Shown here: positions 1,541 through 25,292 of the stretch, piece by piece
How the letters are laid out: each line of letters opens with the position of its first letter
Numbering within the stretch: the stretch's first letter is position 1
Assembly: GCA_030753015.1 (NCBI GenBank)
Contig: JASMDC010000041.1
Span: 1 to 31,838 of the forward strand
Length of the DNA: 31,838 bases
DNA from: Candidatus Undinarchaeales archaeon
GTDB taxonomy: Archaea > SpSt-1190 > JASMDC01
Reading direction: 5' to 3'
Made by a program: the position numbers and the translations under genes
Notes under the pieces: model-generated
The model's database searches: none
Told to the model about the DNA's origin: nothing
Seen by the model: only the letters and a program-made list of their open reading frames with translations

Positions 1541-1933
1541 ATGGCAACGGTCACCGCGAAGGAGATCAAGAAGGGCTCCTACATCAAGGTCAATGACGTC
1601 GTATACCGCATCCTCCGCAAGGAGGTCGTCGTCTGCGGAACGCACTCGCACTCGAAGAACAAGATCATCTGCAAGCCCATACTGGGCGGCGGGGAGCGGT
1701 CGTTCAACTATGCTCACCAGGACCGTCTCGAGAAGATTGATGTCCAGCGCAAAGAGGGCCAGCTCATCTCGATCGGAGGCGGCACCTTCCAGGTCATGGA
1801 CTCGCGCTCCTACGAGATGGTGGACGCCGAGGTCCTCAACGACGATGTGGCCACCGGCATCGGCGAGGGTGACGTGATCATCTTCATGCAGGTCGAGGGC
1901 CGGAGCATCATCCTCGAGAAGAAACCGATGTGA
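1541..1933 (+). CDS. eif5a: Translation factor aIF5A/EF-P family homologue with an atypical loop (GTHSHSK instead of GKHGxAK)
   Basis: EIKKGSYIKVNDVVYRI, KEGQLISI, FQVMDSRSYE and GEGDVIIF match the two-domain aIF5A pattern. Start moved from 1352 to ATG 1541 (130 aa). Confidence 0.85.
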   Translation: MATVTAKEIKKGSYIKVNDVVYRILRKEVVVCGTHSHSKNKIICKPILGGGERSFNYAHQDRLEKIDVQRKEGQLISIGGGTFQVMDSRSYEMVDAEVLNDDVATGIGEGDVIIFMQVEGRSIILEKKPM

Positions 1934-2256
1934 TGGGTACCAATACGGTACGATTACAGAGCACGCTCAAGGGCGTGCTCGTCGTCGTCCTCTGCGCTGC
2001 CGCGCTCACGGACCTGCTCTCGGGGGACGAGTGGGTGCCGCAAGAGGACAGGGTATTGCGCTCGTTCATGGGCTCGAACATCCAGGTGATATCTGCCTAC
2101 AGCTGCGACAGTGACTGCACGTCGGCCGCGGCCGGGATAGCTAGCAACTGCACAGAAAAAGCGATGCCTACACCGACCGCCGCATACCGCAGCAGCCGAC
2201 CCACCGGGAGCCGCTCCTGCCGCTCGTCGGGTGTGTCGATGTCATCCTCAACATAG
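1930..2256 (+). CDS. Small hypothetical exported protein
   Basis: Start overlaps the aIF5A stop. N-terminal hydrophobic stretch GVLVVVLCAAAL, several Cys, Ser-rich tail. Confidence 0.45.
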   Translation: MMGTNTVRLQSTLKGVLVVVLCAAALTDLLSGDEWVPQEDRVLRSFMGSNIQVISAYSCDSDCTSAAAGIASNCTEKAMPTPTAAYRSSRPTGSRSCRSSGVSMSSST

Positions 2257-2496
2257 GTCCCCTGTCCCACTTTCATCCCCGGGAAACCTCGGCGGGAAGG
2301 TCCGGTTTATAAGCTTCGCTCCTCCGGAATCCGGAAAACGTGCTCATTGGCACCACGTGGCACGGTCGTCGTCCTTCAATGGCCAGGATGTACGAACGGT
2401 TATTAACCTGCATGGACATCGGTAACACGGATGGGATGTCCAGGGATCGGCCACGACCGGCGGGGAGACGGCCCACATCCTATTGGTAGGAGGGAC

Positions 2497-2817
2497 GTGT
2501 GGGACCGCTCGTACCTCATCGTCGTCTCTCTCATCCTGATGAGCGCCGTCCTTTCTGGGTGCACCTTCCAACGTGCGGCGGAGCCCGAGGAGGACGTGAC
2601 CGGAGAGCCGTTCGACGATTTCTATACCCATTCAGTGGAGAAGGTGTGCTGTGGTCATTGCCTGGAATACGGTCTGTATGACAGCTCTTCAGATTGCCTT
2701 GATATCCTTCAGGAGAACGAGGGATCAAAGCAGTGTATCTTCATCCTCACCGACCATCCACACACACACTTCCAGTGCGCCCTCGTATTGCAGGACCCTA
2801 CCCCCACACCCGAGTAG
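2497..2817 (+). CDS. Putative Cys-rich lipoprotein
   Basis: GTG 2497 follows GGAGG. Hydrophobic helix ends in lipobox LSGC; CCGHC and three more Cys follow. Confidence 0.65.
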   Translation: MWDRSYLIVVSLILMSAVLSGCTFQRAAEPEEDVTGEPFDDFYTHSVEKVCCGHCLEYGLYDSSSDCLDILQENEGSKQCIFILTDHPHTHFQCALVLQDPTPTPE

Positions 2818-2890
2818 ATCCCGAGCATGTAGGTCACTCTATCTTTGCACAGAAGGGTGATCCATAAAAGGGATCGCTGCCTATGAGGAC

Positions 2891-3400
2891 ATGCTCACAA
2901 TGTCTCTTGATACGGTCTACGAGGAGGACATCCCCTCGAAGTGGGTGACACGCATCCTGACGCTCGCCACCACTTTTTTCGTACTCCTGTTCATCCACCA
3001 GCTCATCGAGGGTTCCGAAGGTGACAATCCAACGGTGAGGGCAATCTTTCCCATCCTATCCCTCTTCTTCCTGGGCTTGTTACTGATCTTTCGCACACTG
3101 ACCGTACGGATGACGACCGACAACGTCACCGTCGCGTACGGTCCCATCTCGTACTCGGTCCCTCTCAAGGACATCACCGACGTCCGGGCCGATGAGACCT
3201 CCGCCCTGCGGTACGGGGGTGCGGGCATCAGGCTCGCTCCCGTCGGTGGGAAGCTTAGGCTGGTGTTCAGTGTCATCGGGGGCCAGCGCGTCATCATAGG
3301 GATGAGTGGCCGGCGGATCGGAGAGCTTGTGTTCTCCACGGATAGGCCGGACGAGATCGTGAAGCTGATCGAGGAGCGGACAGCAAAACATCGAAGGTAG
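2891..3400 (+). CDS. Membrane protein with two N-terminal TM helices and a bacterial PH-like domain
   Basis: Two hydrophobic helices, then VPLKDI...YGGAGIR...LVFSTDRPDEIVKLI. Stop abuts the rsgA start. Confidence 0.7.
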   Translation: MLTMSLDTVYEEDIPSKWVTRILTLATTFFVLLFIHQLIEGSEGDNPTVRAIFPILSLFFLGLLLIFRTLTVRMTTDNVTVAYGPISYSVPLKDITDVRADETSALRYGGAGIRLAPVGGKLRLVFSVIGGQRVIIGMSGRRIGELVFSTDRPDEIVKLIEERTAKHRR

Positions 3401-4491
3401 TGAACATGGATCTGTCCGACCTTGGCTGGAATGATGAACGCGAGGAACAGTTCACAGAACACTACAAATGCGGTCTATTTCCGGCCAGAGTTATCGAGTC
3501 GACGCGTCTTTTTTACAAATTGTTATCCGAAAAAGGCGAGATCACGGGAAAACTATCAGGAAAGTTACGCTATACATGCAGTTCCAAGAGTGATTTCCCC
3601 ACTGTCGGCGACTGGATAGGGTATAAACCGTCCAATAACAAGGGATTTGTGCCGATTCAGGTAAGAATGGAGAGGGAAAGTGCGTTCTCAAGGAAAGTCG
3701 CAGGAAAAGTGTCGGATGAACAGGTGATCGCGGCTAATATCGACACGATCCTCATCGTGAACGGTCTTGACCAGGACTTCAGCATTCGGAGGATCGAAAG
3801 ATACGTCACCCTTGCCGGAGAAAGCGGGGCCGGGTTCGTAATCGTCCTGAACAAGGCGGACCTGTGCAAGGACCTAGAGGGTGTGCTCTCCAGCCTCAGG
3901 GAACAGTTCGAGGGTGTGCCCGTGCACGCCATAAGTGCACTGGACGAAAGCGGTCTCGAGCCGATCAGGGAGCTGTTCGTCCCGGGAAGGACGTATGTGT
4001 TCCTGGGGTCCTCGGGGGTCGGGAAATCGACCATCATCAACCGCCTGCTGGGCGAGGACAGGATACGGACGTCCTCGGTGAGCGACCATGACGGTAGGGG
4101 GCGACATACGACGACTTCGAAGAACCTCATGCTCCTTCCCAACGGCGCGATCGTCATCGACACGCCAGGTCTGCGTGAAGTGCAGCTACTTGCATCGGGT
4201 GCAGGGCTGGCGCACGCCTTTGCGGACATCGAGATGCTGGCAGAGGGATGCAGGTTCACGGACTGTACGCATACTTCGGAACCCGGCTGTGCGGTCCTGG
4301 CGGCCGTGGAGAACGGTGCCATCCCCGGGGAGAGGCTCGACAGCTATCACAAGCTGAAGAGGGAGATCGAGCACAACCTCTCCAAGTCCGAGGCGAGGTT
4401 CAAGAACAAGCGGAGCCCGTTCTGGAAGAATATCAGCAAGCAGGCACGGATGATCAAGAAGAACAACCGCAAGAACGTCCGCGACCGATAA
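3400..4491 (+). CDS. rsgA: Ribosome small subunit-dependent GTPase A (circularly permuted GTPase)
   Basis: OB-fold PTVGDW; G4 NKAD, G5 SA, G1 GSSGVGKST, G2 GRHTTT and G3 DTPG in permuted order; Zn finger CRFTDCTHTSEPGC. Start may be ATG 3406. Confidence 0.95.
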   Translation: MNMDLSDLGWNDEREEQFTEHYKCGLFPARVIESTRLFYKLLSEKGEITGKLSGKLRYTCSSKSDFPTVGDWIGYKPSNNKGFVPIQVRMERESAFSRKVAGKVSDEQVIAANIDTILIVNGLDQDFSIRRIERYVTLAGESGAGFVIVLNKADLCKDLEGVLSSLREQFEGVPVHAISALDESGLEPIRELFVPGRTYVFLGSSGVGKSTIINRLLGEDRIRTSSVSDHDGRGRHTTTSKNLMLLPNGAIVIDTPGLREVQLLASGAGLAHAFADIEMLAEGCRFTDCTHTSEPGCAVLAAVENGAIPGERLDSYHKLKREIEHNLSKSEARFKNKRSPFWKNISKQARMIKKNNRKNVRDR

Positions 4492-8319: not shown

Positions 8320-8411
8320 ATCCTGAGACTGTTGATGGAGATGCCCGTGACACCTTGGAGGAGGTCCGGAAGGACTCTGAAGGCACAGGACCGTGAATCC
8401 GATCGGTATAC
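8320..8411 (-). repeat. Degenerate attC-like site A (distal end of the array)
   Basis: Contains ATCCTGAGACTGTTGATGGAG, GTCCGGAAGGACTCTGAAGGC and CCGTGAATCCGATC, which resemble sites F, E and B. The core reads GGTATAC instead of GTTATAC; the other arm is not recognisable. Confidence 0.55.
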
Positions 8412-8434: not shown

Positions 8435-8770
8435 TCACTCCTTGTTCTTATATCGGTATTTCTGATCGAAATAGGTTATGTCGACATATCCGGCATATAT
8501 CTTCGCTGAGTGTTTTACACCCTTTGGTATGTAATACCGGTCTCCTTTCTGATATGTCCTTTTCTTACCAGAGATCGTTAGATCGCCCTTCCCTTCCAAT
8601 ACAACACTCCATTGACCTTCGTGTGAATGCTCGGGAACTTCAACATCCTTTTCAAATTGCATGAAGATGATCTGGTGATTATCCCCTTGTGATAGATAGG
8701 CTTTGAGACCATCAAATGGGATATCGGCTTGTGGTAATGCCATGATTGGTGGTGGAAAAGGATCCGTCAT
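8435..8770 (-). CDS. Cupin domain protein (cassette 6)
   Basis: VPEHSHEGQWSVVLEG and GDRYYIPKGVKHSA cupin motifs; start set at ATG 8770. Confidence 0.9.
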   Translation of the reverse strand: MTDPFPPPIMALPQADIPFDGLKAYLSQGDNHQIIFMQFEKDVEVPEHSHEGQWSVVLEGKGDLTISGKKRTYQKGDRYYIPKGVKHSAKIYAGYVDITYFDQKYRYKNKE

Positions 8771-8817
8771 GATAAAAGCTAGCATCATATTGTTTTAAAG
8801 CAATAAGGCTGTCTTTC

Positions 8818-8947
8818 GCCTAGCGGCCAAGGACTCACCAGACGCGGCCTCGCCAAGCGATTCTCAAACGACGTTAGGGTCACCAGGGTTCAGAAGATCC
8901 AGGGCCGTGTTGGTAGAGGCCCGCAACCGTGAATCCGGTCGTTAAGT
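8818..8947 (-). repeat. attC-like site B (130 bp)
   Basis: On the + strand GCCTAGC-GGCCAA-GGACTCAC ... GTGAATCC-GGTC-GTTAAGT; the arms pair imperfectly. The left core has AGC instead of AAC. Confidence 0.8.
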
Positions 8948-8972
8948 GACGGCCTGTGATAAGTTCGGGTCA

Positions 8973-8988
8973 CCAAAAAGTATATAAA
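8973..8988 (+). promoter_or_regulatory. BRE/TATA promoter inside cassette 5
   Basis: CCAAAAAG-TATATAAA about 28 nt upstream of ATG 9016. Confidence 0.65.
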
Positions 8989-9015
8989 CGGGATATCATG
9001 CGGGGCCATATCATA

Positions 9016-9483
9016 ATGGAAATCGACGTTGCGAGTTATGATGAGCTTCTTAGTGACTCATTCTATCAATCCCTTGAATCATCATACATGAATGCCGATA
9101 AGCGTGTAATTGTAAAACTACCATATGATGAGAGAGCTCCAGAAAAAGAACAGGAAATTATTGATACTGTTCAGGAGCATTTCAAGCAGGAATATGATGA
9201 ACTGTCTACTTTTCTTGATCAAGAAACAAAGTGGGAGGCAACAAAGAGATATCTATCGCCAGTGGTGAAGTCCCGTTATCATCAATCTCTTGGCGCAGTG
9301 TCACTCTTATCTGCACTAGCATTGCCCTTTACCACTGCACTTGCTCCAATCACTCTATTAGCGGGCGGTGCATATGCGCTCAGTTATCTTGACACATACG
9401 CTAATTGTCAGATCGAGGATAGGAAGAGGGTAAATGCACGTAATGACCTTTCGGACCTTGAAATCGAGTTCTTCTACTCATAA
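9016..9483 (+). CDS. Hypothetical membrane protein (cassette 5, inverted relative to the array)
   Basis: AT-rich ORF filling the space between sites B and C; C-terminal hydrophobic hairpin LGAVSLLSALALPF...ITLLAGGAYAL; start moved to ATG 9016. Confidence 0.75.
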   Translation: MEIDVASYDELLSDSFYQSLESSYMNADKRVIVKLPYDERAPEKEQEIIDTVQEHFKQEYDELSTFLDQETKWEATKRYLSPVVKSRYHQSLGAVSLLSALALPFTTALAPITLLAGGAYALSYLDTYANCQIEDRKRVNARNDLSDLEIEFFYS

Positions 9484-9503: not shown

Positions 9504-9637
9504 GCTTAACGCAAAAGGGCTTCCGACGTGCCTCCACAAGAGAATCTTCAGCGAAGTTCAGGCCAGCTAGGTCCCAGCTACTGGAGGCGTGTTGGTGGAG
9601 CGTTGAAGGCGCGGAGGCGGAAAGCCGGCTGTTATGT
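9504..9637 (-). repeat. attC-like site C (134 bp)
   Basis: GCTTAAC-GCAAAA-GGGCTTCCG ... CGGAAAGCC-GGCT-GTTATGT; shares GCGTGTTGGTGGAG with the other sites. Confidence 0.85.
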
Positions 9638-9701
9638 ACAGTACTCCACGGCTTTTAGTATTCGATGTAGAAGCTGAGGGAAACAGGAAACCTTTTGAAG
9701 C

Positions 9702-10286
9702 ATGCAAACAACTCCCGATACCACGGTGGAGTCATTGACCAAGATCGAGATCACTGTAGAGAACATCGTCGCCTCCATCAACCTACATTGTAGGATACCA
9801 CTTGAAAGAGTGGCGGCATTGTCTGATAACGCCGAGTACAATCCCGAGCAGTTCCCGGGTCTCGTGTTTCGGATTCAGGAACCAAAGACGGCGAACCTGC
9901 TCTTCGGCACGGGTAAAGCGGTGTGCACGGGTGGAAAGAGTCTTGATGACGTGAAAGCGGCGGTCGGGAAGGTGAAGGAGAGCCTCGCTGGATTCAACGT
10001 GAAGTTTGAGGGTGAGCCAGATATCGAGGTCGTGAACCTGGTGGCTTCTGTGAAGACTGACCTCGAGCTCAACTTGGACAGGCTCGCATACAAGATGGAA
10101 GGAGTGGAGTATGAGCCAGAGCAGTTCCCCGGAATGGTATTCCGGACGGTGAAACCTAAGGCGGCCATCCTCATCTTCAGCACAGGCCGGTTCGTGGTGG
10201 CGGGAACGAGAAACATAGAGGACGCGCGGGTAGTATTTGATATGTTACTGGAAAAACTGCGGGATATAGGCGAAATAAATCCATAA
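9702..10286 (+). CDS. tbp: TATA-box-binding protein (cassette 4, inverted relative to the array)
   Basis: Two direct repeats: ENIVAS..EYNPEQFPGLVFR..PK..LLFGTGKAVCTG and VNLVAS..EYEPEQFPGMVFR..PK..LIFSTGRFVVAG. The true start may be TTG 9735 (GGTGGAG upstream; GAAACC-TTTTGAAG at 9687-9700). Confidence 0.97.
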   Translation: MQTTPDTTVESLTKIEITVENIVASINLHCRIPLERVAALSDNAEYNPEQFPGLVFRIQEPKTANLLFGTGKAVCTGGKSLDDVKAAVGKVKESLAGFNVKFEGEPDIEVVNLVASVKTDLELNLDRLAYKMEGVEYEPEQFPGMVFRTVKPKAAILIFSTGRFVVAGTRNIEDARVVFDMLLEKLRDIGEINP

Positions 10287-10390
10287 AAAGAAGATTCATC
10301 CCTTATACGTCAAAACAGGAAAAAGGAACCGATCCACCAGCATTGCCTTGAATCGACATGGTCAATGATGATCGTTGGTAGGGGCATTGC

Positions 10391-10540
10391 ATATAACGGA
10401 CAAGGCATTCCTTGATGCGGCCCCGCCTGGCGATTCTCGAGCGACGTTGGGATCACTATGGTCTCAGGATGATCGGAGCCGTGTTGGTGGAGGGCCGGAA
10501 GGGCTCTGACGGCCCGGACCCGGGAGGGCGAATGTTAGGC
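10391..10540 (-). repeat. attC-like site D (150 bp)
   Basis: ATATAAC-GGACAA-GGCATTCCTTG ... CGGGAGGGC-GAAT-GTTAGGC; inner hairpin GGGCCG-N12-CGGCCC; interior similar to site B (GCGATTCTC..CGACGTT.GG.TCAC). Confidence 0.85.
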
Positions 10541-10562
10541 GTCGTTTCACGAATGATGAGTT

Positions 10563-10811
10563 CTATTGTTCATCTTTGTGATAAAGGTCAAGGAAGATTA
10601 TCTTATCCTCGTTCTCATTATACATGTATGATAATCGATAAGGAGCGATATAGACTTCTCGCGTTCCTTTTCTTGAGAACCTCATCGGCTTTCCAATCGT
10701 GGGAGAATTCAAGATCTTCCTGATCTTCTTCTTGACCTTGGTCTTGATTAATTCATCCCTGATCCCCTTGACCTTCTTCTTGAAGAGAGGGTCATATGCT
10801 ACCGTTACCAT
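10563..10811 (-). CDS. relE: RelE/StbE-family toxin (cassette 3)
   Basis: 82 aa, very basic; FKKKVK..KILNSPTIGKPMR..RKGTREVYIAPYRLSY..IIFLDLYHKD; overlaps the antitoxin stop. Confidence 0.85.
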   Translation of the reverse strand: MVTVAYDPLFKKKVKGIRDELIKTKVKKKIRKILNSPTIGKPMRFSRKGTREVYIAPYRLSYMYNENEDKIIFLDLYHKDEQ

Positions 10812-11083
10812 TCTTCCAGTTCTTTCTCGAATTCTTCCTTGGTCATCTCCTTGAATTCTCCCGTCTCATATCGAGCTAGAGCTTCCTCGGTTCTCCGTGC
10901 AAATTCAAGATCCTCAGTGAACTGCTTCTCCATTTCCGAAGCTTTCTTCAGGATGAATTGAACTCCATTCTTGATAATGATCAGTTTATCTCCTTCATGC
11001 AGGTCTTCCCGCATTTCAGCGGGGATTACGACCTGTCCTTTGGAACTCATCTTCGTGATAGCAACATCCATGCGATTACCCAT
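10805..11083 (-). CDS. AbrB/MazE/SpoVT-family antitoxin (cassette 3)
   Basis: ITKMSSKGQVVIPAEMR..LHEGDKL with an acidic C-terminus; start may be ATG 11071. Confidence 0.9.
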   Translation of the reverse strand: MGNRMDVAITKMSSKGQVVIPAEMREDLHEGDKLIIIKNGVQFILKKASEMEKQFTEDLEFARRTEEALARYETGEFKEMTKEEFEKELEEW

Positions 11084-11115: not shown

Positions 11116-11144
11116 ATGGAAATCAGTCGTAATCGTGAAATGGC

Positions 11145-11292
11145 GTCTAACGGCAAAGGCCTTCTATCGCGCCTCCGTAACACGAATCTGTATCGAAGCT
11201 CAAACCAGCATAGCTCGAGGATCGACGGGGGCGTGTGGGCAGAGGGCCGGAAGGACTCTGACGGCCCGGAGCTAGAAGGTCGGGGGTTATAC
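11145..11292 (-). repeat. attC-like site E (148 bp)
   Basis: GTCTAAC-GGCAAA-GGCCTTCTA ... TAGAAGGTC-GGGG-GTTATAC; shares GAGGGCCGGAAGGRCTCTGACGGCCCGGA with site D. Confidence 0.9.
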
Positions 11293-11428
11293 GCAATAAA
11301 ATTTAGTTTTCTATCAATCCTGCAATAGCAGACCATATTGTAAGGGAATTATTTTTCATGTTTGCAGTGCTTTCGAGTTAGGTTTGCTATTATTTTATAT
11401 CAATAATTATTATTTTTAAGGTATATTA

Positions 11429-11797
11429 TTATTCGACATAGATAGTAAGCTCATCTGTTCCTACGGCACCATCATCATCTATTACTTTTAATTTAGCAGT
11501 GTATGTACCCGGTTTTTCAAATGTGTATGCATCCCTTCCACAGTTTTTACAGAATGTATCATACTTACCATCCCCATCTGCATCCCATTCATAAGAGACT
11601 ATATTGCCGTCGGGATCAGATGCTGATCCAGCAAAATTAAACTTTTCCCCGACAGATACATGAATATCTTCACCTGCAATAACATTTGGAGCTTTATTTG
11701 ATTGTACTTCCTTGCTTGTGCAACCTGTATTAAGGACCATCAAAAACGTAATAATAAGGATTCCTAAGGGGTAGTTATTTGATTTTATCTGTAACAC
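11429..11797 (-). CDS. PKD-domain lipoprotein (cassette 2)
   Basis: Hydrophobic leader ending NTGC; NKAPNVIAG..SDPDGNIVSYEWDADGDG..YTFEKPGTYTAKLKVIDDDGA. Strongly AT-rich; start codon uncertain. Confidence 0.85.
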   Translation of the reverse strand: MLQIKSNNYPLGILIITFLMVLNTGCTSKEVQSNKAPNVIAGEDIHVSVGEKFNFAGSASDPDGNIVSYEWDADGDGKYDTFCKNCGRDAYTFEKPGTYTAKLKVIDDDGAVGTDELTIYVE

Positions 11798-11894
11798 CTC
11801 ATTTAGATTATCACAGTAAAACTAATCCTAGATGATGTTTATAAAACTATCTGAAAAATGAAAAATGAGTTTTTTGAAAATTAAATTTTATGGT

Positions 11895-12030
11895 ACAGAA
11901 CGGTAGAGCCCCCCCCCGACGCGGCTCAGTATAGCGAATTTGTGCGAAGTTTAGACAATCGAGGCTCCAACAATCCTGAGCCGTGTTGGGTGACCGCGGG
12001 GGCGCGAACCCGGGAGGGTGGATGTTAGAC
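11895..12030 (-). repeat. attC-like site F (136 bp)
   Basis: ACAGAAC-GGTAGA-GCCCCCCCCCG ... CGGGAGGGT-GGAT-GTTAGAC; shares GACGCGGC and GAGCCGTGTTGG with the other sites. Confidence 0.85.
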
Positions 12031-12044
12031 GCAGTTCCAATTGA

Positions 12045-12350
12045 TCATAGTAAGAAAGAAAATTTCCTCTTTCCGTGAATGATCCTTCGGATTTCAATAA
12101 TCTGATCCTTGATCACGTAGAAGGCCAAATAATTATCAATAACAAGCATCCGATATCCGAGTAATCCGAGTCTATCATCTTTCGGGACCACTCCCAGTTC
12201 AGGGAAGGATTCCAACTTGAGAATGCTCTTGTCAATCTTGTTAACGAATTGTTCGGCCGCGGAGGGATTATCCAGGAAGATGTACTCGAAGATATTTAGA
12301 AGATCGTTCTGCGCGATAGGCAGATATTCGATCGTGAATTTCTTACGCAT
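12045..12350 (-). CDS. RelE/ParE-family toxin (cassette 1)
   Basis: AQNDLLNIFEYI..DNPSAA..LESFPELG..GYRMLVIDNYLAFY..IEIRRIIHGKR. Confidence 0.9.
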   Translation of the reverse strand: MRKKFTIEYLPIAQNDLLNIFEYIFLDNPSAAEQFVNKIDKSILKLESFPELGVVPKDDRLGLLGYRMLVIDNYLAFYVIKDQIIEIRRIIHGKRKFSFLL

Positions 12351-12609
12351 TCAATCTCTTCCTAAGAAGGGCCATCATTTCCTTATGAGTCTTTCTTCCT
12401 TCCTTTGAGGAGCTCTGTTCCTCAGCGATGCTGAGTTTCTGATAGAGTTCCAGTAATGCTTCATGTTCTTCATATCGAGCGAGGCTCATCACGACGAGAT
12501 CCCCCTTACCATTCTTGGTAATGTAGACGGGTTCTCCTTCTTTGTGACACAGCTCCGAGATCTCATTGAAATGATTGCGGAGATCGGATATCGGTTTGAT
12601 GATCACCAT
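12343..12609 (-). CDS. Phd/YefM-family antitoxin (cassette 1)
   Basis: IKPISDLRNHFNEISELCH..EPVYITKNGKGDLVVMSLARYE; overlaps the toxin start. Confidence 0.92.
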   Translation of the reverse strand: MVIIKPISDLRNHFNEISELCHKEGEPVYITKNGKGDLVVMSLARYEEHEALLELYQKLSIAEEQSSSKEGRKTHKEMMALLRKRLNA

Positions 12610-12687: not shown

Positions 12688-12701
12688 GGAATTGGAATTG
12701 C

Positions 12702-12839
12702 GTCTAACTAGTGCATATCCGACATGCGGCATTACGTGTGTGCCCCTAAAGCCGAGTGATATCCGAAAGGGATGTCGTATACACCACCTCACGGGGAAGA
12801 TATTCGACATTCGGATACCATGTCGGGATGCTGTTATAT
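12702..12839 (-). other. Candidate attI site (alternatively a divergent attC)
   Basis: Minus strand ends ATGTCGGATATGCACTA-GTTAGAC. It lacks the attC-family interior and holds six variants of TATCCGACAT in both orientations. It is the site closest to the integrase. Confidence 0.6.
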
Positions 12840-12864: not shown

Positions 12865-13197
12865 TCACTGCCGTAGGACCTCGACGCACCGATCGATGAC
12901 CTTATTGACCGTCGAACGTGTGAGACGGCCTACCGTATACAGAACTGCCTTGCGATCAATGGTCATGAACTGGTTCGGGCGAACGTTGCTAGGCCTCTTG
13001 AGGGAGCCCGACTCAAAGTCCCCCTGGTCGATCTGTACGGCGTATCGGTCCCTCACAGACCGGCTCGTGACCTTGCATATGATGAGGTCGTCCCCGCCGC
13101 CGCTAGCGACTACAAGGGCTGGCCGTCGCTTACACCCAGAGAGGTCCGTGAAGATGACCGGGGCAACAATGACGTCACCCTTCACAAATCCTTCCAC
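12865..13197 (-). CDS. mazF: PemK/MazF-family toxin
   Basis: GTG 13197 after GGAGG; FVKGDVIVAP.IFTDLSGCKRRPALVV..DLIICKVTS..GSLKRPSNVRPNQFMTID. Confidence 0.9.
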   Translation of the reverse strand: MEGFVKGDVIVAPVIFTDLSGCKRRPALVVASGGGDDLIICKVTSRSVRDRYAVQIDQGDFESGSLKRPSNVRPNQFMTIDRKAVLYTVGRLTRSTVNKVIDRCVEVLRQ

Positions 13198-13475
13198 GCC
13201 TCGTCCTCCTCCGGCCCGTACCAGACATCCGTCATAGAGGACCGGATTGCTATGGTAAGGCACAAGACCTCCATCGCCTCATCGTCCAGCCCGAACCTCC
13301 TCTTGAGCTCTTCTAAGGTGGGGATGGCATTCTTCAGGGCAGCATCGTGATTCCTTGCGATGAGCACGAGCTTGCGGACGATCTCGTCATAGCTCTCGCT
13401 CCGGTGCTCGCGGAAGGCATCGAGCTCTTTCTTCGTGTTCTTGTGGAGCTTGATGGTTGTGACGTCGGTCGGCAT
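13182..13475 (-). CDS. Putative antitoxin: RHH-like N-terminus with a DUF2281-like W..PEEDEAWKDL tail
   Basis: ATG 13475, 97 aa; TTIKLHKNTKKELD..SESYDEIVRKL; the acidic tail overlaps the mazF start. The longer 256-aa ORF-track call is a spurious extension. Confidence 0.8.
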   Translation of the reverse strand: MPTDVTTIKLHKNTKKELDAFREHRSESYDEIVRKLVLIARNHDAALKNAIPTLEELKRRFGLDDEAMEVLCLTIAIRSSMTDVWYGPEEDEAWKDL

Positions 13476-13555: not shown

Positions 13556-13933
13556 TCATACATCCTCCCCTCCTTCGAACCTGTCCAGCGGGCTGACGAT
13601 CCGCACCAGGTCCCGCCTCGTCACGTGAGTGTAGATCTGTGTCGTCCTGCAGCTCGCGTGGCCCAGGAGCTCCTGGATGTACCGCAGGTCCACACCGTCC
13701 TCGAGGAGGTGGGTGGCGAAGCTGTGACGCAGGCTGTGGACGGTCGCGCCCGGCCTGACCTCGGCCCTCCGCGCCGCCCGCCCGAACACGTGCTGGACGG
13801 TCCACACCCTCTCCTCCCAGAGCCACTCCCGGCCCGTCACGGTCCTGATCCTGCAGATGAGCTCTTGGTCGTAGGGTATGGACACCCCGATGGTGCCGTC
13901 CCCGCGTCCGTGCAGCCTTATCGTGCGTCCCAT
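13556..13933 (-). pseudogene. Integron-integrase-like tyrosine recombinase with a large in-frame internal deletion (125 aa)
   Basis: The C-terminal box II is intact: [44 protein letters not shown]. It is fused directly to an N-terminal segment ([28 protein letters not shown]). The core-binding domain and box I Arg are absent. Confidence 0.85.
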
Positions 13934-14132
13934 TGTTCGCACCACCAAGCACATACGCGGTCCGCGCCTAAATGCGCTTGCCCCTCCCCGCGGGGGGGAC
14001 CTGCGCCCGCACCCCGGCGGAGGAGTGCGTCCACCACGGCCGGTCATGCACACGTCCCGCATCGCTTATAAGGTCACAGCGGCTCTTAGTTCGTAAAGAG
14101 ATGGTCACCAACTACCGCAAGAGCGTGATACC

Positions 14133-14874: not shown

Positions 14875-17800
14875 TTACAGTGGCAGGGAGGTGCACTCGC
14901 AGGCACAGAAGCGCTTGGACATCGTGCATCGCTCCCGGTCCACCCGCAGCTCGCACCCCACCAGACAGTCTGCGCAGTAGATGCTCACGCTGCACGGGTC
15001 CTGGGACACGGTCGTGTAGATGTCCGTCCGCTCGCCCTCGGTAGCGGTCGGGTCCAGCACCCCCAGCGCCGCGTACACAAATACGTTGGACGGGACCAGG
15101 GCGTCGGTCCACACCGTCCCGTCCTGGTGCTCGGCGACCACCCACAGGCGGTAGCTCTCGCCCATGGTCGTCGGGAACATCTGGCCGGTAAGCTCGGACG
15201 TGTCGCCGCGGCCCAGGGCCACCGTGCGCCGCTCCTCGCTCCCGCCCACCACAAGGCCTTCCTTGCTTACGGCACGGACGAGCACCGTGCCCACAAAGGA
15301 CTTGGGGACCGTGTTGCGCACCGTCAGCGTGGCCCGCGCCTCGCCGGCGGTGTACATCTCGTCCAGAGGGTTGTTGGCAGCGTCGGTGAAGGCGGCTTCC
15401 GTGATCTCGAGCTCAAGGGGCCTTACCTCCAGGCTGGCGTCCGGGTAGCCTAGGCGGACCCGGGCCCGTTCGCCCTCGCACCACGTGTTCATCACACGGC
15501 CCTTGCACCGGCTGGTTGCGTACCCCTGGCCGGGGAGCACCTGGCGCTCGACCACCGCACCGTCCGCGTCGCGCACCTCCACGCCGATGGAGAACACCGC
15601 GTTGGCCATCTCTGCGCTCAGAACCAGCTCCTCGGTCGCGATCCCGAGCTCCTGTACCGGCCCGGTGACCTCGTGGACCCTGGCCGATCCCTCCACCACC
15701 CTGTTCTGCGCGTCGGCGAGGAACACCTCGACCGTCACCGGGTAGGTGTGTGCCGTCACGGCCACCGCACCTGTGACCTGCTCGCCGGTGTAGCCCTCGG
15801 AGGTCCTTTCCCCGTCGCGGAGGAAGTAGGCGTCGGCCACGGTGAGCATGTCGGGCACCACCATGAACGAGATGGGACCGCGCGCGTCGAGCACCACCTC
15901 GCCCCCGGCGCGGCGCAGGACAGCGCCCGGCTGGACCGCCGTCACCGTCAGGTCGCCGTTGAGGGCGATCTCGCCTGTGAGCGCCCGGTAGTCGGCGCCC
16001 GGTGGGAGCACGATGCTCGAGAGGGAGCCTGCGAACCGCCGGTCCTCGGTGCACGAGCACGGGCACACGAAGCCCTTGGGGCACTCCGGGCAGGAGCAGG
16101 AGGGCAGGAGATGTAGGGAGAGGTCGGCAGCACCCGCAAAGCTGCGGAACCCGGAGTTGCGCACCTCCAGCGAGAGGCGGACACGCTCGCCGTGGTAGAA
16201 GGTCCGCTGCTCGGCCAGTCCCCGGAGGATGGCCAATCGGACGTCGACGCGGGGCATGGACAGCTTGCACTCGCGCAGGCAGCTTTCGGCGTCGTCCCCG
16301 TTCAGGCACCCGCGCTGGCAGGTCACCAGGGACGGCGGCACGCTCTCGCCCGCACCGTCCTCGTCCATCCTTCCGTCGCCGTCGTTGTCCCGGCCGTCGA
16401 CGGGGTCCTCGTCGACACGGTCGTCACCGTCCTCGTCGGCGCCGTTACCGCACTTGCGCAGGCACGGTCCCGGGTCGGGGAACACGCCGCACTCCAGCTC
16501 GCAGGACACGTCCATCTCCACGCACGCACTAGTGCACGCGGACACCTGGTCGATCGCCACGAGCGCCTGGCACATCTCGTTGCACGTGCCCAGGCTTCCG
16601 CAGTCCGTGGCGTCCAGGGCGCACGAGCCTCCGCAGCATACGCCCACTGCGCTGGTGCAGGCCTCGCCGTCACCGCTCCCGGCACAGCCCACGTCGGAGC
16701 CGGTGTCGCAGCCCGAGGCGCCGGCCACGCACGAGCCGCCGCAGCACTTCCCTTCGCTGGCGCCCAACACGCAGCTATCGCCGTCCCGGTCCGCGCACCC
16801 CACTGCCGATGAGCAGGTACCCACGCACGCGATGCGTGCGTCCTCATCGCCGGGATGGACCAGAGCGCACATGGGACCGCATTCCAGAGTGCAGCTGTCA
16901 TCGGCCCGTTCCTCCGCCTCGAGCCCGCCTGGCAGGCAGCACAGGTAACCCGACTCGTCTCCGCAGATGTCGAAGGTCAGCCCCGGCACGTCCGGTCCCG
17001 AGCATGAGCCCCCCTCGCCTAGTGTAGGGGGGACCGCAGCGATGCCGCCGAGGTCGTCGAGGCAGCAGGCGATGATGCGCTTGGCGTCCTCCTCGACGAT
17101 GGGCCCGGTGCAGGAGTAGGTGGTCGTCGTCCGTGTGCCGTCCGGATTGTGGCACACGCACATGCCCAGGTGGCGCTGGCAGTGGCCCACCTCGGCGCCG
17201 CACTCCTCGCGACAGATGCGGGAGCAGCCCGCCTCCGAGCGCGACGCGTACTCGAAGCACTCCTCGGCCGAGATGAACATGTCCTCCGCCTCGATGGCGG
17301 CCAGCGCCTGGACGGCTTGCTGTTGGCGCGCGGACCACTCGTCGGTGTTGCCGTCGGTGATGTCGCCCTCTCCCGGGCCGCACCGGTCCGCGAGCATGAG
17401 CCCGGGGTATACGTGGCCTAGGGTGGACACGTCCTCGACCGTGGCCGATGTCCGCAGCATCCGGATGAGGTCGGCGAGCATGGCCTTGAACTCCTCAGCG
17501 TCGGTGTCGGTGTCAGGATCGCGGGACATCTCGATAAGGATGTCGGACAGGCGCTCCACCAGGGGGACGGCGTCGTACGGGGGCTCCTCGCCGCTGAGCG
17601 AGATCTCGGTGAGCTCGGTGTCGACCAGGGCGCTGATCGTGGTACGTAGGTCGGGGTAGGTGGCCAGGAAGTGGTCCACGAAGCTACGCAGGACCGTCAC
17701 CTTCTCTGCTACGAGCGCGGGACCGTGGGTGGCCTCGTCGCCCAGGAGCGTGCCCGAGCCGTCGAGGGTGCACACGTCCTTGACGTCGACGACGCGCTGG

Positions 17801-19371
17801 TAGGAGGTGGAGTAGTAGGTCCGCCGTTGGGCGGGGCTGGGGAGGTGGCACTCCTCGGGGACCATGGACGTCGCCACGGTCTCCTCGTCCCACGGTGCGA
17901 CATCGCAGGCATCGCTCAGGTCCACGTCCTCCAACGCGGGGTTCTGGAACGTACCCAGGGTGCCCAGGGCCACAGCACAGTGGTCCTTCTGCTGATCGAG
18001 GGCGTCCTCGAGCGCTTCCAGGTGGGCTGCGAGCACCTCGTACAGGTCGCGGAGGTTGTCGAGCGTGGTGAGCACATCGGTGCGGAAGTCGACCGTGTTG
18101 TCGAACCAGCCCTCGGGACAGGCGATCAGCCCCGTGTCGAGCACGCTCAACGGTGTCGGGTCCGTATCGGTGTGGGTCCAGTCGACCGTCGGCGAGTAGT
18201 CGTGGACCTCGCCCGCCTCGCCCTCCGCCCGCTCGCGGCAGAACCGGTCGCCGATGGCCTGACCACCGTCGTCCACCTTCACGGGTTCGGGCCGACCGCT
18301 GCCCTTCAGCAGGCCGTACACGGTGGACCGGAACGCAGGCTCGCAAAGGTTCTTCTGGAACTCTCCGGCGGCGTTGGCGGTACCGGCCTGGTCGTTGCCC
18401 GCAAGCGCCACGATGTACCGTCCGCCCTGCTCCTCGAAGGCCACGATGAAGGGCGCGTCGTACCGCAGGGCCAGCTCGCCCGCGGTGAAGTCCAGCTCCT
18501 CGCTGCCCACGTACACCTTGTTGGCGGCCTGGTCGTACCGCACCCGCATCCCGTCCTCCACGCCGTCGAGCACCGAGTTGGACGTGCTCGAGCCCAGGAG
18601 CACGAGGTTGCCGCCGGGGACCGCGCCTGTGTGCTCGACCACCGCCATACCGAGCTCGGCGCCCAGCACGAGGGCCTTGGCCCGGTCATGGCTCCCTACC
18701 CCGGAGCCGTACACGACCGTGCCATCGCCGCCTGTGCACTTCCCGTCGCTGCAGCCCTCGTAGCACGGGTAAGCGTCGCCGTTCACGACCAGCGGCACAA
18801 GACCGTCGTTGGACCTGATCGACGCGTCGTACTGGCGGACGTTGTCGGGGGAGAACAATCGGTCGTACGCGTCACAGTAGCGCTCGTGGTCGGGCTCGAT
18901 GCATCCCTCGGGGAGAGGGCCTGAGGGACCGGAGGGACCGCCGGGGCCTCCCGGACCACCGGGACCGCCCGGACCGGGTGTCGGGGTCACCGCTCCAACG
19001 GGCACGGTGACGGAGATATAGGTACGACAGCCGGGGCCCATGTCGTAGGCGCCGCAGTCGACCCGGCCCTGGCACCGCAGTGAGTAGGTGCCCTCCACGT
19101 CGTAGGTGACGTCCACGACGCTGTTCCACGCGTCGCCCCAGATGAACTGGCCCGAGGAGTAGTCATCGATGTACATGTCGATGTGGTTCTCCTGGGAGTC
19201 GGTCCCGGTGCACTTCACCGTGACGGGCGCCTCAGCGCTGGCGGCAGCGACGCTCCCGTCGTTGGAGGATGAGTGGATCTGGGCACCGTTGACGAACACG
19301 TTCACCGTGGGCCGGGCCAGCGCAAGGGCCAGCGCGAGCACGCACAGGACCGCGAGCATCCTCGACCTCAT
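14875..19371 (-). CDS. Giant secreted Cys-rich protein C (1498 aa): signal peptide, Pro/Gly linker, S-layer-like domain, helical scaffold, Cys repeats, DxDGD Ca-binding motifs, Ig-like domains, 8-Cys C-terminus
   Basis: ATG 19371 overlaps the upstream stop as ATGA; leader MRSRMLAVLCVLALALALA; shares KDVCTLDGSG, ITDGNTD.W, WCEG..YP.A.LEV and the terminal Cys motif with genes A and B. Confidence 0.92.
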   Translation of the reverse strand: MRSRMLAVLCVLALALALARPTVNVFVNGAQIHSSSNDGSVAAASAEAPVTVKCTGTDSQENHIDMYIDDYSSGQFIWGDAWNSVVDVTYDVEGTYSLRCQGRVDCGAYDMGPGCRTYISVTVPVGAVTPTPGPGGPGGPGGPGGPSGPSGPLPEGCIEPDHERYCDAYDRLFSPDNVRQYDASIRSNDGLVPLVVNGDAYPCYEGCSDGKCTGGDGTVVYGSGVGSHDRAKALVLGAELGMAVVEHTGAVPGGNLVLLGSSTSNSVLDGVEDGMRVRYDQAANKVYVGSEELDFTAGELALRYDAPFIVAFEEQGGRYIVALAGNDQAGTANAAGEFQKNLCEPAFRSTVYGLLKGSGRPEPVKVDDGGQAIGDRFCRERAEGEAGEVHDYSPTVDWTHTDTDPTPLSVLDTGLIACPEGWFDNTVDFRTDVLTTLDNLRDLYEVLAAHLEALEDALDQQKDHCAVALGTLGTFQNPALEDVDLSDACDVAPWDEETVATSMVPEECHLPSPAQRRTYYSTSYQRVVDVKDVCTLDGSGTLLGDEATHGPALVAEKVTVLRSFVDHFLATYPDLRTTISALVDTELTEISLSGEEPPYDAVPLVERLSDILIEMSRDPDTDTDAEEFKAMLADLIRMLRTSATVEDVSTLGHVYPGLMLADRCGPGEGDITDGNTDEWSARQQQAVQALAAIEAEDMFISAEECFEYASRSEAGCSRICREECGAEVGHCQRHLGMCVCHNPDGTRTTTTYSCTGPIVEEDAKRIIACCLDDLGGIAAVPPTLGEGGSCSGPDVPGLTFDICGDESGYLCCLPGGLEAEERADDSCTLECGPMCALVHPGDEDARIACVGTCSSAVGCADRDGDSCVLGASEGKCCGGSCVAGASGCDTGSDVGCAGSGDGEACTSAVGVCCGGSCALDATDCGSLGTCNEMCQALVAIDQVSACTSACVEMDVSCELECGVFPDPGPCLRKCGNGADEDGDDRVDEDPVDGRDNDGDGRMDEDGAGESVPPSLVTCQRGCLNGDDAESCLRECKLSMPRVDVRLAILRGLAEQRTFYHGERVRLSLEVRNSGFRSFAGAADLSLHLLPSCSCPECPKGFVCPCSCTEDRRFAGSLSSIVLPPGADYRALTGEIALNGDLTVTAVQPGAVLRRAGGEVVLDARGPISFMVVPDMLTVADAYFLRDGERTSEGYTGEQVTGAVAVTAHTYPVTVEVFLADAQNRVVEGSARVHEVTGPVQELGIATEELVLSAEMANAVFSIGVEVRDADGAVVERQVLPGQGYATSRCKGRVMNTWCEGERARVRLGYPDASLEVRPLELEITEAAFTDAANNPLDEMYTAGEARATLTVRNTVPKSFVGTVLVRAVSKEGLVVGGSEERRTVALGRGDTSELTGQMFPTTMGESYRLWVVAEHQDGTVWTDALVPSNVFVYAALGVLDPTATEGERTDIYTTVSQDPCSVSIYCADCLVGCELRVDRERCTMSKRFCACECTSLPL

Positions 19372-22300
19372 GCAATCGCCTCCAGGATGCAATCGCAGTC
19401 ACAATTATAAGGAGTGACGGTGCAGCGCCCCCGCTCGATACGCAGCTCGCAGGTCGAGAGACATTGCACGCACGCGACCCGTGCCCGGCAGCCCTCGTGG
19501 TCCATGGATGTGAACACGTCGTTGCGGGCGATGCCACCGGTAGCGCTCTGGGGGATGTTGAGCCCGGCCATGGGGAAGAGGACCGTCGGGACGACCTCGT
19601 CGAGCCATACTGCGCCGTCGCGGGCATGTGCCGTTACCCGGACCCGCAGCGTCATCCCGGGGGTCGCGTCGACGGGGGCCGACTCCGCCGTCATCGTGGA
19701 GCCCCTGTCATCGAGCCCGCGGTCGACGGCGACCTCGCGCTCCGATTCGGTGATGGCGAGACCGTCGTCGCCGATTATGGCGATCGTGACCGTGCCCGTG
19801 AACCCCGAGGACGCCTGGTTGGCCAGCTCCACGCGCACCCGCACCGTGCGGGCAGCGGACCGCCCGCCGACCACAGATCCGCCGTCGTCCACGAAGGCCG
19901 CATCGGTCACCACAAGGGCAGGCCGACGTACCTCGAGGAACGCACGCGGGTACGAGAGGCGCACACGCTCGTGGAGGCCCTCGCACCAGGTCAGGAGAGC
20001 AGGTCCCGTGCACAGGTCCGCGGCCCGTCCCTGTTCGAGGAGGATACCCTCGGCGAGAGTGGTACCGCCGCCCTCGACGCGGTAGCCGATCCGGAACAGG
20101 AGGTCGGCCTGGGTGCCGGTGATGTCGAGCGGGGCCGAGGTGAAGGTGCTCTCCTTGACGGGCCATGCGATCTCGTGTGTGCGCTCGGTACCGATTACCG
20201 GCGTACCGTCCCAACCGACGAGGTATATTGTGAGGGAGACGGGGACCAGCTGCGTGGTGAACGACACCGCACCGAACGCCTCCTCTCCCGGATGCCCGGT
20301 GGTGGCACGCTCGCGCCCGCCCACCGTGAACCACGCGTCGGCCACCGTGAGCTTGCCCGGCGCACCTATCCCGTAGAAGGGGCCGTGCGGTTCGCCGACG
20401 ATCTTGCCCGCAGCGTCTCGGACGGTGGCGACCGGGCGGACGGTCGTGCCCGCCAGGGAGGCGCCGAGCTCAACGGGGTCCGTGAGGACGCCCTGCTTCT
20501 GTCCCGGGCCGACCACGAGCTGTGTGGTGGTGAGGATGACGAGCTCTTCTACCGAGCAATCGCACGGGCAGTCGTCGCCGACGGGGCACACGGAGCACGC
20601 GCAGTCGCGGTTGATCTCAAGGACCACGTCGACCTTCCCGGTGAAGCCCGTGCCGCCCCGGTTCTCGACGGTGAGATGCAGCCGGGGGCGTTCACCGGTG
20701 TGGAACGACTCGGCCTCCTGCCCGTCGCGCACGAGGGCGAGGGACGCGTGGATCCGGGGGTGGACGGCGCGGCACATCTGGAGGCAGAGGGTGATCTCGG
20801 GCAGGTCGTCCGAGCTGGTCAGGCAGCCCAACTCGCAGTGCCGCAGTCCTTCCGGCATGGAGGGCGAGGCGACGCCCGGACAGCCCTCAAAGCACATCGA
20901 GCGTGCCCCGGACAGCGGGAACTGGTCGATGCATCGCAGCTCGCAGGCGATGTCGGCACCCTCGCAGCGCTGTCGGCATGCCTGGGCGAGGGCCGGGCGC
21001 TCGGGATAAGCGTTCTGGCACTCTGTGAGGCAGCTGGCGGCAAGGCACGGCGGCCAGCCGCGGGGCCGGTCGCACGACGAGGCGAAACGCACGCACGCGC
21101 CCGAGCCCGGGTTCAGGGCGAAGGTGACGACCTCAGGGCATGCACCGCACGACTTCCCGCCGGTCGCGCAGGAGCCGCCGCAGCAGACGCCTGTCGGTCC
21201 GTCCACCTCGCACACGCCGCCCTCGACCGTGTCCGCACAGAGCGATGGTACGTCCTCGCAACCGTTGGCGCCGGCAACGCACCCCCCTCCGCAGCATAGC
21301 CCGGACGCACCGTCGATGCTGCATTCGGCGCCGTCATCGGCGCTGACGCAGCCGTGACCGGGGCAGGCCGACCATCCGTACGGTGCATCGCACGGCGAGG
21401 GGAAGCGCACGCACTTGCCCGATAAGGGATCCTTTGCATAGGTGTCGACCTGCTCGCACGTCATGCACGAACTGGCGCCCACGGCACAATTACCGCCACA
21501 GCAGGTGCCGACACCCTGTCCGACGAGGCAGGGCAAGCCCTTCCCATCGTCACCGCACGCGGTGTCCGGGACGCACCCCGTGGCACCTACTGCACACGAG
21601 CCTCCGCAGCACTGGCCCTGGGCGCCCGCGACGGTGCAGGCGGTGCCGTCCTCCTGACCCGTGCAGCCGAAGCCGTCGCAGTCGGTCCAGCCTGCGGGGA
21701 CGTCGCACGTGGACTCGAACCGCGTGCACCCGCCCGCGTTGGGATCCCGGACCCACACCGGCGAGCGCGGGCAGGCGGTGCACTCCTCGCCGCCCGTGAG
21801 GCAGCGGCCGCCGCAGCACACACCATTCTTATTGTCAAAGGAGCAGGATGCCAGCTCGTCACGGCCCACACAGGCATCGACACGACCCGCGCACATGAGC
21901 GCGTGGACCATGCACTGGTCATCGCAGCAGAGGCCCTGTACACCGTCTACCTCGCACGCGCTCTCATCACCCTTCCCGGCGCACTGCTCGTCCTGCAGCC
22001 CGCAGGCATGCCGGCAGACGAGGCGTCTTGTGGAGTGGCGTGCATACTTGCCGTCGCACAGCTCCTCGCAGGAGAGACCGCACCCTTCCTCGGTGATGGG
22101 CAGCTCGGGCTCGAGGCCCGGTCCCCGGCAGCAGAGCTCGTCGACGGTCTCGGTGCACCAGCTCACGGATATACCCGTCGACGCCCGCGCCCCCGGGCCA
22201 AGGCGACATGCACCACCCCACCGGTCCTTGTAGGCCGGGTCGGATAACCGGGATACGGTCACGATCCCGTCGGGCTGTGAGGCATGGACGAGCGAGTCAT

Positions 22301-25262: not shown

Positions 25263-25292
25263 GTCTCATTGACCTCTCATATGTTCTCTGTC

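Follow-up and report, generated by a model that had tools for sequence, protein, structure and literature searches.

The 31,838-nt contig JASMDC010000041.1 of a Candidatus Undinarchaeales archaeon, the whole of which is the window analysed here, contains a gene for a TATA-binding protein (TBP) within an array of short genes and attC-like repeats. We consider it probable (roughly 0.72) that this tbp is a working paralogue of the host TBP that has become, promoter included, one of the units of an integron-like cassette array. We infer that a recombinase recombines the unit, that the gene is currently expressed, and that its product affects promoter choice. The system is an integron-like variant and not a demonstrated integron, and the cassette interpretation is well supported. 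The tbp is an unusual cargo for a cassette array, and it is one of four copies, not the main TBP of the cell. The source genome, which we refer to as G000 (with the window as contig C53), comprises 3.85 Mb in 117 contigs and has a GC content of 60.3% and a contamination of 5.01%; its only congener is referred to as G001.

The tbp unit and its flanking repeats

A repeat search of the window found six copies of one motif, spaced at 555–892 nt. The complete copies of this repeat family (fam1), sites B to F, are on the + strand, measure 130–150 nt each, and run from a RYYYAAC-type start box to a GTTRRRY-type end box. The complete tbp lies alone between site C (9504–9637; GCTTAAC at 9504–9510 and GTTATGT at 9631–9637) and site D (10391–10540; ATATAAC at 10391–10397 and GTTAGGC at 10534–10540), as the original prediction had stated. 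Also in the array are site B (8818–8947), recovered by the repeat search, the alignment, and a pair model, and sites E (11145–11292) and F (11895–12030), both recognized by reading, alignment, and pair model. Site A (8347–8411) is truncated to its right half and marks the left array end, where it abuts chromosomal DNA of 58–60% GC. The end cores of integron sites (RYYYAAC / GTTRRRY) are present in sites B to G, the last being a hairpin site of another family, and across 28 aligned sites the AAC and GTT columns show little or no variation. One box departs from the consensus in each of sites C (GTTATGT) and D (ATATAAC). A fam1 profile (nhmmer) yielded 28 matches on nine contigs of the genome and eight matches in the congener, where they fall in three of the nine loci examined.

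The fam1 sites have a conserved fold, which we modelled with 32 pairs that make up an R box, an L-like stem, a long-range stem, a junction helix, and a side hairpin. Across the 28 aligned sites, 83.9% of the cells pair, compared with 34–42% when the partners are slid by one to three columns. Changes on both sides occur in 21 of the 32 pairs, and the covariation score of 0.347 (0.188 in shuffles) was reached by none of 500 shuffles. Pairing amounts to 77.6% in the R box, 77.7% in the L-like stem, and 89–95% in the long-range stem, in which eight of ten pairs show compensatory changes. With 27 (site C) and 26 (site D) of the 32 pairs formed, against a range of 19–31 over all sites, the two repeats that flank tbp are typical in their pairing and thus sound representatives of a family whose fold is conserved. 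Columns are on average 63% identical, so sequence is conserved as well as structure. Rfam and tRNA scans of the window gave no matches; Rfam has no attC family.

The sequence just past each GTT box, where a unit starts, is complementary to the sequence just ahead of the next AAC box. This complementarity reaches 18/19 (12024–12042 / 12690–12708), 16/19 (10534–10552 / 11133–11151), and 15/16 (11296–11311 / 11876–11891) in three units, and such ends are the remnant expected of a circularisable cassette whose recombination site spans its junction. For the tbp unit, the left end box (GTTATGTACAGTACTCC, 9631–9647) and the right end box (GGGGCATTGCATATAAC, 10381–10397) match at 12 of 17 positions with five transition mismatches, exactly as originally reported; outside the 7-nt consensus boxes the match is 6/10, which is weak when taken alone. 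The start of a related unit on another contig (C44) matches the end box in the window at 14 of 17 positions.

The longest open reading frame (ORF) of tbp spans 9702–10286 on the + strand (194 aa, from ATG 9702). A TTG start at 9735, giving a protein of 183 aa (9735–10286; MTKIE...), is favoured by the gene callers in public collections, by the paralogues, and by a GGTGGAG at 9725–9731. The protein matches Pfam PF00352 with two repeats (E 1.6e-53; 178.9 bits, cut-off 22.9), and the duplication is still visible in the DNA (9834–9913 / 10107–10186, 71% identical). It falls under the cut-offs of all archaeal TBP models of NCBIfam (best NF001594, 196 bits versus 278; nearest to its cut-off NF001593, 178.2 versus 181) because it belongs to a divergent, lineage-specific clade. 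Read from the sequence, it retains QFPGL...LLFGTGK and QFPGM...LIFSTGR, plus NIV and NLV, which we take to be the DNA-kinking phenylalanine pairs and the central Asn/Val/Thr contacts, with positions as in the yeast and Pyrococcus structures. The single departure in these contact motifs is the Ala of GRFVVAG, where the main copy on contig C48 has Thr (GRFVVTG); this position of the second repeat (...VVTG) is presumably a central DNA contact in the solved TBP–DNA complexes. The copies on C44 and on congener contig C29 also have GRFVVAG, and the same Ala occurs as GNFVVAG in the C65 and congener C3 copies. The original prediction singled out VVNLVAS and GRFVVAG as unusual; both are present as claimed, but they are not specific to the cassette, being common to the C44 and congener C29 copies and having close variants in the C65 group, of which the C65 copy lies outside the arrays. 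The departures are a trait of the paralogue clade and not of the cassette.

The proposed transcription signals of the gene are plausible. The promoter-like element GGAAACC TTTTGAAG (9682–9700, + strand) may represent a B recognition element (BRE) and TATA box, and CCTTTTGAAG at 9691–9700 is conserved together with its surroundings upstream of the C44, C65, and congener C29 copies. As this element lies inside the unit and is conserved upstream of paralogues, the gene appears to be packaged together with its promoter. In a seawater metatranscriptome (run X20), contigs match 10204–10430, from the tbp 3′ end into site D, and 11377–11580, in the 3′ part of a gene for a PKD-domain protein, with zero differences. 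The first of these contigs is a weak hint of transcription across the tbp 3′ end, since DNA carry-over is possible.

Array borders, recombinase, and direction of insertion

The tbp unit has a second placement in the genome. C53 9629–10317 corresponds to C44 311–998 with 88.3% identity over 691 nt, and the homology starts at CTGTT/ATGT (the slash marks the boundary), the GTT box of site C. The left neighbour of the unit on C44 is a repeat of about 370 nt from a different family (fam2), not fam1. There are nine fam2 copies in the genome (C44 46–354; C11 64334–64695; C29 62675–63050 and 178810–179171; C62 12568–12944; C73 53057–53397 and 98877–99236; C95 116185–116558; C87 7250–7444), all of which are conserved up to ...GCATAACCCACTGTT (GTT) and divergent beyond. 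They contain a palindromic box, GCCGTATAAC-TTCC-ATTATTGCGGC, and another box, GCCGCATAAC-CCACT-GTT, beyond which similarity among the copies is lost. In the seven copies with upstream sequence, fam2 forms the border between chromosomal DNA of 60–65% GC and inserts of 42–54% GC. On C11, a fam2 copy is followed by a single unit and a fam3-like site; another, on C29, is followed by a unit in which start and end box pair. By its appearance fam2 looks like an attI-type insertion site with no recombinase gene adjoining. The right end of the C44 tbp unit is destroyed by two insertions: an element of about 360 nt with perfect 20-nt terminal inverted repeats (CCCATCGTCGGCACCCTTTA) that sits 30 nt past the tbp stop (999–1357), and an insertion sequence (IS)-type transposase gene (1751–3562) that is 90% identical to one on C61.

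The opposite border is formed by a third family, fam3, represented in the window by site G (12702–12839). This hairpin site has fam1-type end boxes and a different body, and it is a candidate attI or terminal attC. Sites of this family are always at the recombinase end of the arrays, are conserved to the right of TAA/C and variable to the left of it (window, C23, C76, and congener C14), and have a toxin–antitoxin (TA) operon between them and the recombinase. From these positions, fam2 delimits the arrays on one side, and fam3, plus TA operon and recombinase where present, does so on the other.

The recombinase gene of the window (13556–14062, − strand) is an internally deleted tyrosine recombinase, in which about 45 N-terminal aa are fused to about 80 aa of the C-terminal catalytic part. 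An intact homologue of 354 aa, about 680 nt longer, is found in the congener (C14, L049, 4931–5992), with the MazF module and fam3 site following it as in the window. Further copies are found on C31, at whose start two are arranged in tandem (2–1072 and 1438–2583), and on C76 (about 930–2021); the C31 and C76 genes were called intact, the C76 copy with an in-frame TAG. The family occupies four loci, is coupled to TA modules and cassette arrays, carries an N-terminal extension of about 75 aa, and has thousands of relatives with 45–55% identity across archaea and bacteria. The best PDB match of the intact congener protein is the integron integrase VchIntIA (2a3v, E 4.5e-43), and the family passes the model NF040815 ("site-specific tyrosine recombinase/integron integrase") with 232.0 and 237.7 bits against a cut-off of 220. 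A search with TIGR02249 found no other Xer-type gene in the genome. With intact recombinase genes at other loci of the genome and in the congener, the units would be excisable and re-insertable. The recombinase-coupled TA operon has palindromes (GGTATACC) in its promoter region. GGTTTATAT, downstream of the recombinase and ahead of these operator-like palindromes, was considered as an attI box; the TATA box of the antitoxin operon is the likelier identity.

Besides tbp, the array carries a cupin cassette (8435–8788, − strand, 117 aa; Pfam Cupin_2, 4.6e-11), an ORF without a Pfam family (8956–9483, + strand, 175 aa from GTG, with shorter ATG starts possible), a ParE-like toxin with a MazE/AbrB-like antitoxin (TA1; 10563–11083, − strand; Pfam), a PKD-domain protein (11429–11797, − strand; PKD_4, 8.4e-16), and a ParE toxin with a Phd/YefM antitoxin (TA2; 12045–12609, − strand; Pfam). 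A MazF-like toxin and its DUF7557 antitoxin (12865–13475, − strand; Pfam) follow site G and are linked to the recombinase in both the window and the congener. The GC content of the seven gene sets of the array is 37–59%, compared with 60.3% for the genome. The right-hand part of the window (14875–31838, − strand) encodes three very long ORFs of 1505, 1964, and at least 2170 aa in DNA of 63–71% GC, well over the genome mean; the part compared is 86% conserved in the congener at the nucleotide level.

Several cassettes have homologues elsewhere in the congener. Those of cupin, TA1, and TA2 (83%, 82%, and 69% nucleotide identity, respectively) are in other congener arrays and in a different order, and the congener's paralogous cassettes have only their 5′ regions in common. 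The array itself is located at a reciprocal synteny breakpoint: the G000 blocks are arranged as A-array-B and C-D, and those of G001 as A-y-D and C-x-B. Both flanks have homologues of 84–88% identity in the congener, and the flanks at 8093 and 14019 are joined there (C16, C10) to the two parts of a stretch that G000 C24 carries uninterrupted (about 28880–28929). The junctions x and y consist of ordinary genes and have no repeats. The relative does not carry this tbp here, and a repeat-free tbp at the same locus, which would have spoken against the original prediction, is absent from the congener. In three DNA runs, each from a different study, contigs span both cupin-B-ORF-C-tbp and tbp-D-TA-E-PKD-F-TA-G with zero differences. 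The array is not an assembly artefact.

Other loci show variations of this architecture. A small complete array on C23 (1577–3700) runs from the stop of a chromosomal gene through fam1, two fused units, fam1, a TA pair, and fam3 to the remnant of a MazF C-terminus; the fused units encode a membrane protein and a cupin, the latter ORF having its stop codon within the AAC box, and the recombinase is gone. Junctions at which two units are fused without a repeat body occur on C23 (about 2377–2396) and on congener contig C8 (L050; about 1560–1600 and about 4046–4090). They keep only the AAC box, which in one of them is followed after 5 nt by a TT box (AAC-N5-(G)TT). These junctions suggest a recurrent, precise loss of repeat bodies.

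We compared the fam1 strands using published rules for the recombinogenic bottom strand (PMC5027507). The + strand has 106 G.T versus 47 A.C cells, is the more stable strand in 23 of the 28 sites, is purine-rich, and has a GC skew of +0.14. It is bottom-strand-like, which would place the crossover at TAA/C and make 9510–10396, the limits originally given, the cassette, site C its attC, and tbp antisense. The constant position of recombinase, TA operon, and fam3 at the right end, the side on which fam3 is conserved, and the gene order of the C23 array agree with this polarity. The alternative crossover G/TT, with cassette 9632–10534, site D as attC, and tbp in sense, has in its favour the C44 boundary, which is the only directly observed boundary of a tbp unit, the conservation limits of all nine fam2 copies, and the stop codon of the C23 cupin ORF inside the following AAC box. 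ORF orientation is mixed over 22 inter-repeat intervals, and the first ORF after fam2 is on the + strand in five of nine copies. The tbp had been described as inverted relative to the array; it is indeed opposite to five of the seven gene sets, but the evidence on array polarity conflicts.

One could speculate that a recombinase lacking a strand-selecting domain and using either strand would reconcile these facts. In the extended form of this idea, the system would be a strand-symmetric relative of integrons, in which an Xer-like recombinase acts on branched sites of about 140 nt at either end box. Units could then enter in two orientations, repeat bodies could be swapped, and insertion could take place at fam2 or fam3; a host tbp with its promoter would have been made movable, and TBP dosage and type would be shuffled among arrays and strains, thereby rewiring promoter choice. 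We regard this as unlikely, at about one chance in five. If it were true, the tbp unit would be a rare cassette whose chromosomal source is still visible, and the captured promoter would indicate a DNA-based and not an RNA-based origin.

For the cassette interpretation as we prefer it, the fam1 repeats are most likely folded single-strand recombination sites of an Xer/IntI-like tyrosine recombinase, in which the RYYYAAC and GTTRRRY ends would pair mutually and each also with the adjoining unit-specific sequence. The tbp unit would have been placed at least twice, once inside the array of the window and once beside the attI-like fam2 boundary on C44. It is probably fixed where it now lies, and its own promoter would drive its expression as one of four alternative TBPs beside four TFBs, with a presumed role in shifting promoter choice.

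TBP paralogues and selection

The genome encodes four TBPs (on C48, C65, C44, and C53) and four TFBs. Of 48 TBPs placed in a maximum-likelihood tree, the 18 close ones group in a single clade (100/100) that comprises three paralogue groups. The main group contains the C48 copy and congener C39, a second, TFB-adjacent group contains C65 and congener C3, and group III contains the C53 cassette copy, the C44 copy (85% protein identity to C53), congener C29, and four metagenomic clusters. The relatives P0003–P0006 are 78–86% identical. Identity falls to about 48% or less beyond the clade, with Aenigmatarchaeota as the nearest named relatives (41–45%), and the cassette TBP is thus a home-grown paralogue and not an import. 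Searches for TBP relatives gave two loci with 42–43% identity in genome contigs, and in metagenome contigs the best 80 of 526 were all at or below 49%. We ruled out that group III TBPs are confined to short contigs, as one member is on a contig of 345,955 nt. On C65 (3802–5108 and about 3560–3800), a TFB gene is immediately upstream of tbp, and two tandem repeats of about 125 nt, each with CTGTCTAAC, lie downstream of tbp.

Selection differs between the groups. The ratio of nonsynonymous to synonymous substitution rates (dN/dS) is 0.19 for C53 versus C44 tbp (dS 0.42), 0.044 for the main-group orthologues C48 and congener C39 (dS 0.52), and 0.094 for the TFB-adjacent orthologues C65 and congener C3 (dS 0.48). 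From these values, the cassette-type TBP is constrained yet evolves faster, and the divergence of the C53 and C44 copies dates from about the time of the species split. The C48 gene has the highest GC content at third codon positions (GC3; 0.83 versus 0.66) and textbook TTTATAAA boxes upstream. The original prediction offered two roles for tbp. The first, that of a captured essential gene that stabilises the array, is unsupported, because there are three other TBP genes, among them this canonical, high-GC3 copy with TATA boxes whose orthologues evolve four times more slowly. The second, that of a mobile alternative TBP that retunes promoters, fared better: with purifying selection acting on the gene, an alternative and potentially mobile TBP is a fair reading, with a presumed effect on promoters.

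The same values bear on whether tbp is a real cassette that has become a fixed and redundant passenger, a fossil of one capture with no regulatory role that is drifting towards loss. The fourfold higher dN/dS relative to the main TBP orthologues and the presence of three other TBPs fit such a course, as do the internal deletion of the local recombinase, the end complementarity, reduced to 12/17 against the 14/17 still retained at the C44 start, and the identical arrangement in contigs of three studies. A ratio of 0.19 at a dS of 0.42, however, still indicates purifying selection, maintained for about as long as the two species have been separate (orthologue dS 0.48–0.52), and ORF, promoter-like element, and DNA-contact motifs remain intact. 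Intact recombinase genes are present in trans, and the metatranscriptome contig over 10204–10430 also counts against a silent passenger, if weakly in view of possible DNA carry-over. We consider that tbp is improbable as a mere relic, though this has a real minority share of the probability.

Weighing the cassette interpretation and relation to known systems

Several observations weigh against the interpretation of tbp as a cassette. The local recombinase is dead through its deletion, and the family lacks the IntI-specific domain: residues 82–239 and 267–347 of the intact congener copy align with 10–169 and 239–319 of VchIntIA, and 27 residues stand between them where the integrase has 69, the IntI-specific domain among them. 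Scores against TIGR02249 (237 and 234 bits) are under the cut-off of 265. The fam1 fold is branched, with a three-way junction and an extra hairpin on one arm, and is not a simple hairpin, and the evidence for TAA/C and for G/TT is in conflict. Among the units of the array, tbp has the weakest end complementarity. The cupin unit is the one shared cassette with both boundaries readable, and neither of its flanking repeat bodies is conserved between the species. The congener's closest tbp, the C29 copy (80–83% aa identity), is outside any array; a suspicion that it is broken by an in-frame TAG was dismissed, as the stop precedes the true start codon and leaves the gene intact. Neither an excision joint nor a circular junction was found in the assembled contigs of four runs, which drop rare variants.

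Some of these points would equally suit an ordinary chromosomal tbp that was never a mobile cassette, with structured repeats resembling miniature inverted-repeat transposable elements (MITEs) or repetitive extragenic palindromic (REP) sequences inserted between pre-existing genes. The recombinase without an IntI domain, the unconserved repeat bodies around cupin, the array-free location of the congener's closest tbp, and the lack of excision joints in contigs all lean this way, and body-less junctions and orphan end boxes exist. Repeat insertion would not, however, create inverted end boxes that are specific to each unit and extend the RYYYAAC/GTTRRRY consensus. Units of 37–53% GC in a genome of 60% GC, a TA-rich array, the absence of the array at both syntenic junctions of the congener with three of its units in other arrays there, and the same GTT/ATGT junction of tbp beside two different repeat families also contradict it, and we hold this explanation to be quite unlikely. 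That the contig is chimeric or contaminant DNA, with tbp and array foreign to the archaeon, is largely refuted and hardly credible: the assembly of 117 contigs with 5.01% contamination and the three GC regimes along the window (about 0.58, then 0.40–0.53, then 0.62–0.70) could suggest it, but contigs from three other studies bridge the junctions without differences, both flanks have congener homologues of 84–88%, the tbp clusters with the genome's own paralogues, and the same repeat family is on nine contigs and in the congener.

The cassette interpretation accordingly keeps one part of the original claim and modifies another. The tbp forms a one-gene unit in a real array of attC-like structured repeats beside a decayed recombinase, but the system is not a textbook integron, given that the IntI-specific domain is absent.

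Integron cargo is almost always accessory and comprises resistance, toxin–antitoxin, defence, and surface proteins. The sedentary chromosomal integron of Vibrio (superintegron) has long arrays with long (about 120–130 nt), mutually similar attC sites. The present array resembles it in its long and similar sites, in its several TA cassettes, and in having some cassettes against the majority orientation. The Vibrio system differs in its bacterial host, an IntIA with the extra domain, a single attI beside intI, strict strand selectivity, and accessory cargo; no general transcription factor is known as a cassette. Haloarchaea such as Halobacterium NRC-1 have multiple TBP and TFB paralogues, several of them on megaplasmids, and their TBP–TFB pairs are thought to partition promoters. 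The archaeon studied here is similar in its expanded set of general transcription factors (four TBPs and four TFBs), some copies of which are on mobile or variable DNA. In haloarchaea, however, the carriers are plasmids and IS-rich regions and not site-specific cassettes, and the expansion described here is independent and took place within one marine lineage. The recombinase aligns end to end, without the IntI insertion, with XerA/dif-type archaeal recombinases (NF040815; PDB 5hxy, 4a8e), yet unlike XerA it has the N-terminal extension of about 75 aa, four loci tied to TA modules or arrays, and VchIntIA as its best PDB match.

Archaeal integrons and clusters of attC sites lacking integrases (CALINs) with TA-rich arrays have been described (Ghaly et al. 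2022 Sci Adv, PMC9668308). As presented in the main text of that paper, they share with our array the tandem short ORFs between attC-type sites with RYYYAAC/GTTRRRY ends, the common TA cassettes, the lack of a working integrase near most arrays, and a recombinase gene that points to the array. According to the same text, their IntIs carry the IntI-specific extra domain, which the recombinases here lack, and attI is immediately downstream of intI, which is not clearly so here; the repeats of 130–150 nt, the branched fold, and the two further conserved array borders (fam2 and fam3) set our system further apart. The main text also cites the TA cassettes of the Vibrio superintegron as having their own promoters and being thought to stabilise the array. 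The main texts searched, among them PMC10661359 and PMC9668308, the latter of which contains no TBP, TATA, or transcription term, do not report a TBP cassette; supplementary data S6/S7 of PMC9668308, which were outside this search, may list PF00352.

The relatives of the source genome at class level have small genomes of 0.6–1.2 Mb. Among the runs listed, the window stretch is present in 20 from 12 studies, labelled mostly as marine or seawater metagenomes. The cargo has chromosomal paralogues of the same lineage that share its promoter-like element, which points to capture of genomic DNA and not of a transcript. If the tbp is a true cassette, cassette systems would be able to carry core transcription machinery, and one recombination event could add an alternative TBP to a strain or remove it. 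The array, which combines a domain-lacking recombinase with boundary sites of two kinds and occurs in a marine archaeon that is widespread, would then bear on how far the integron principle reaches.

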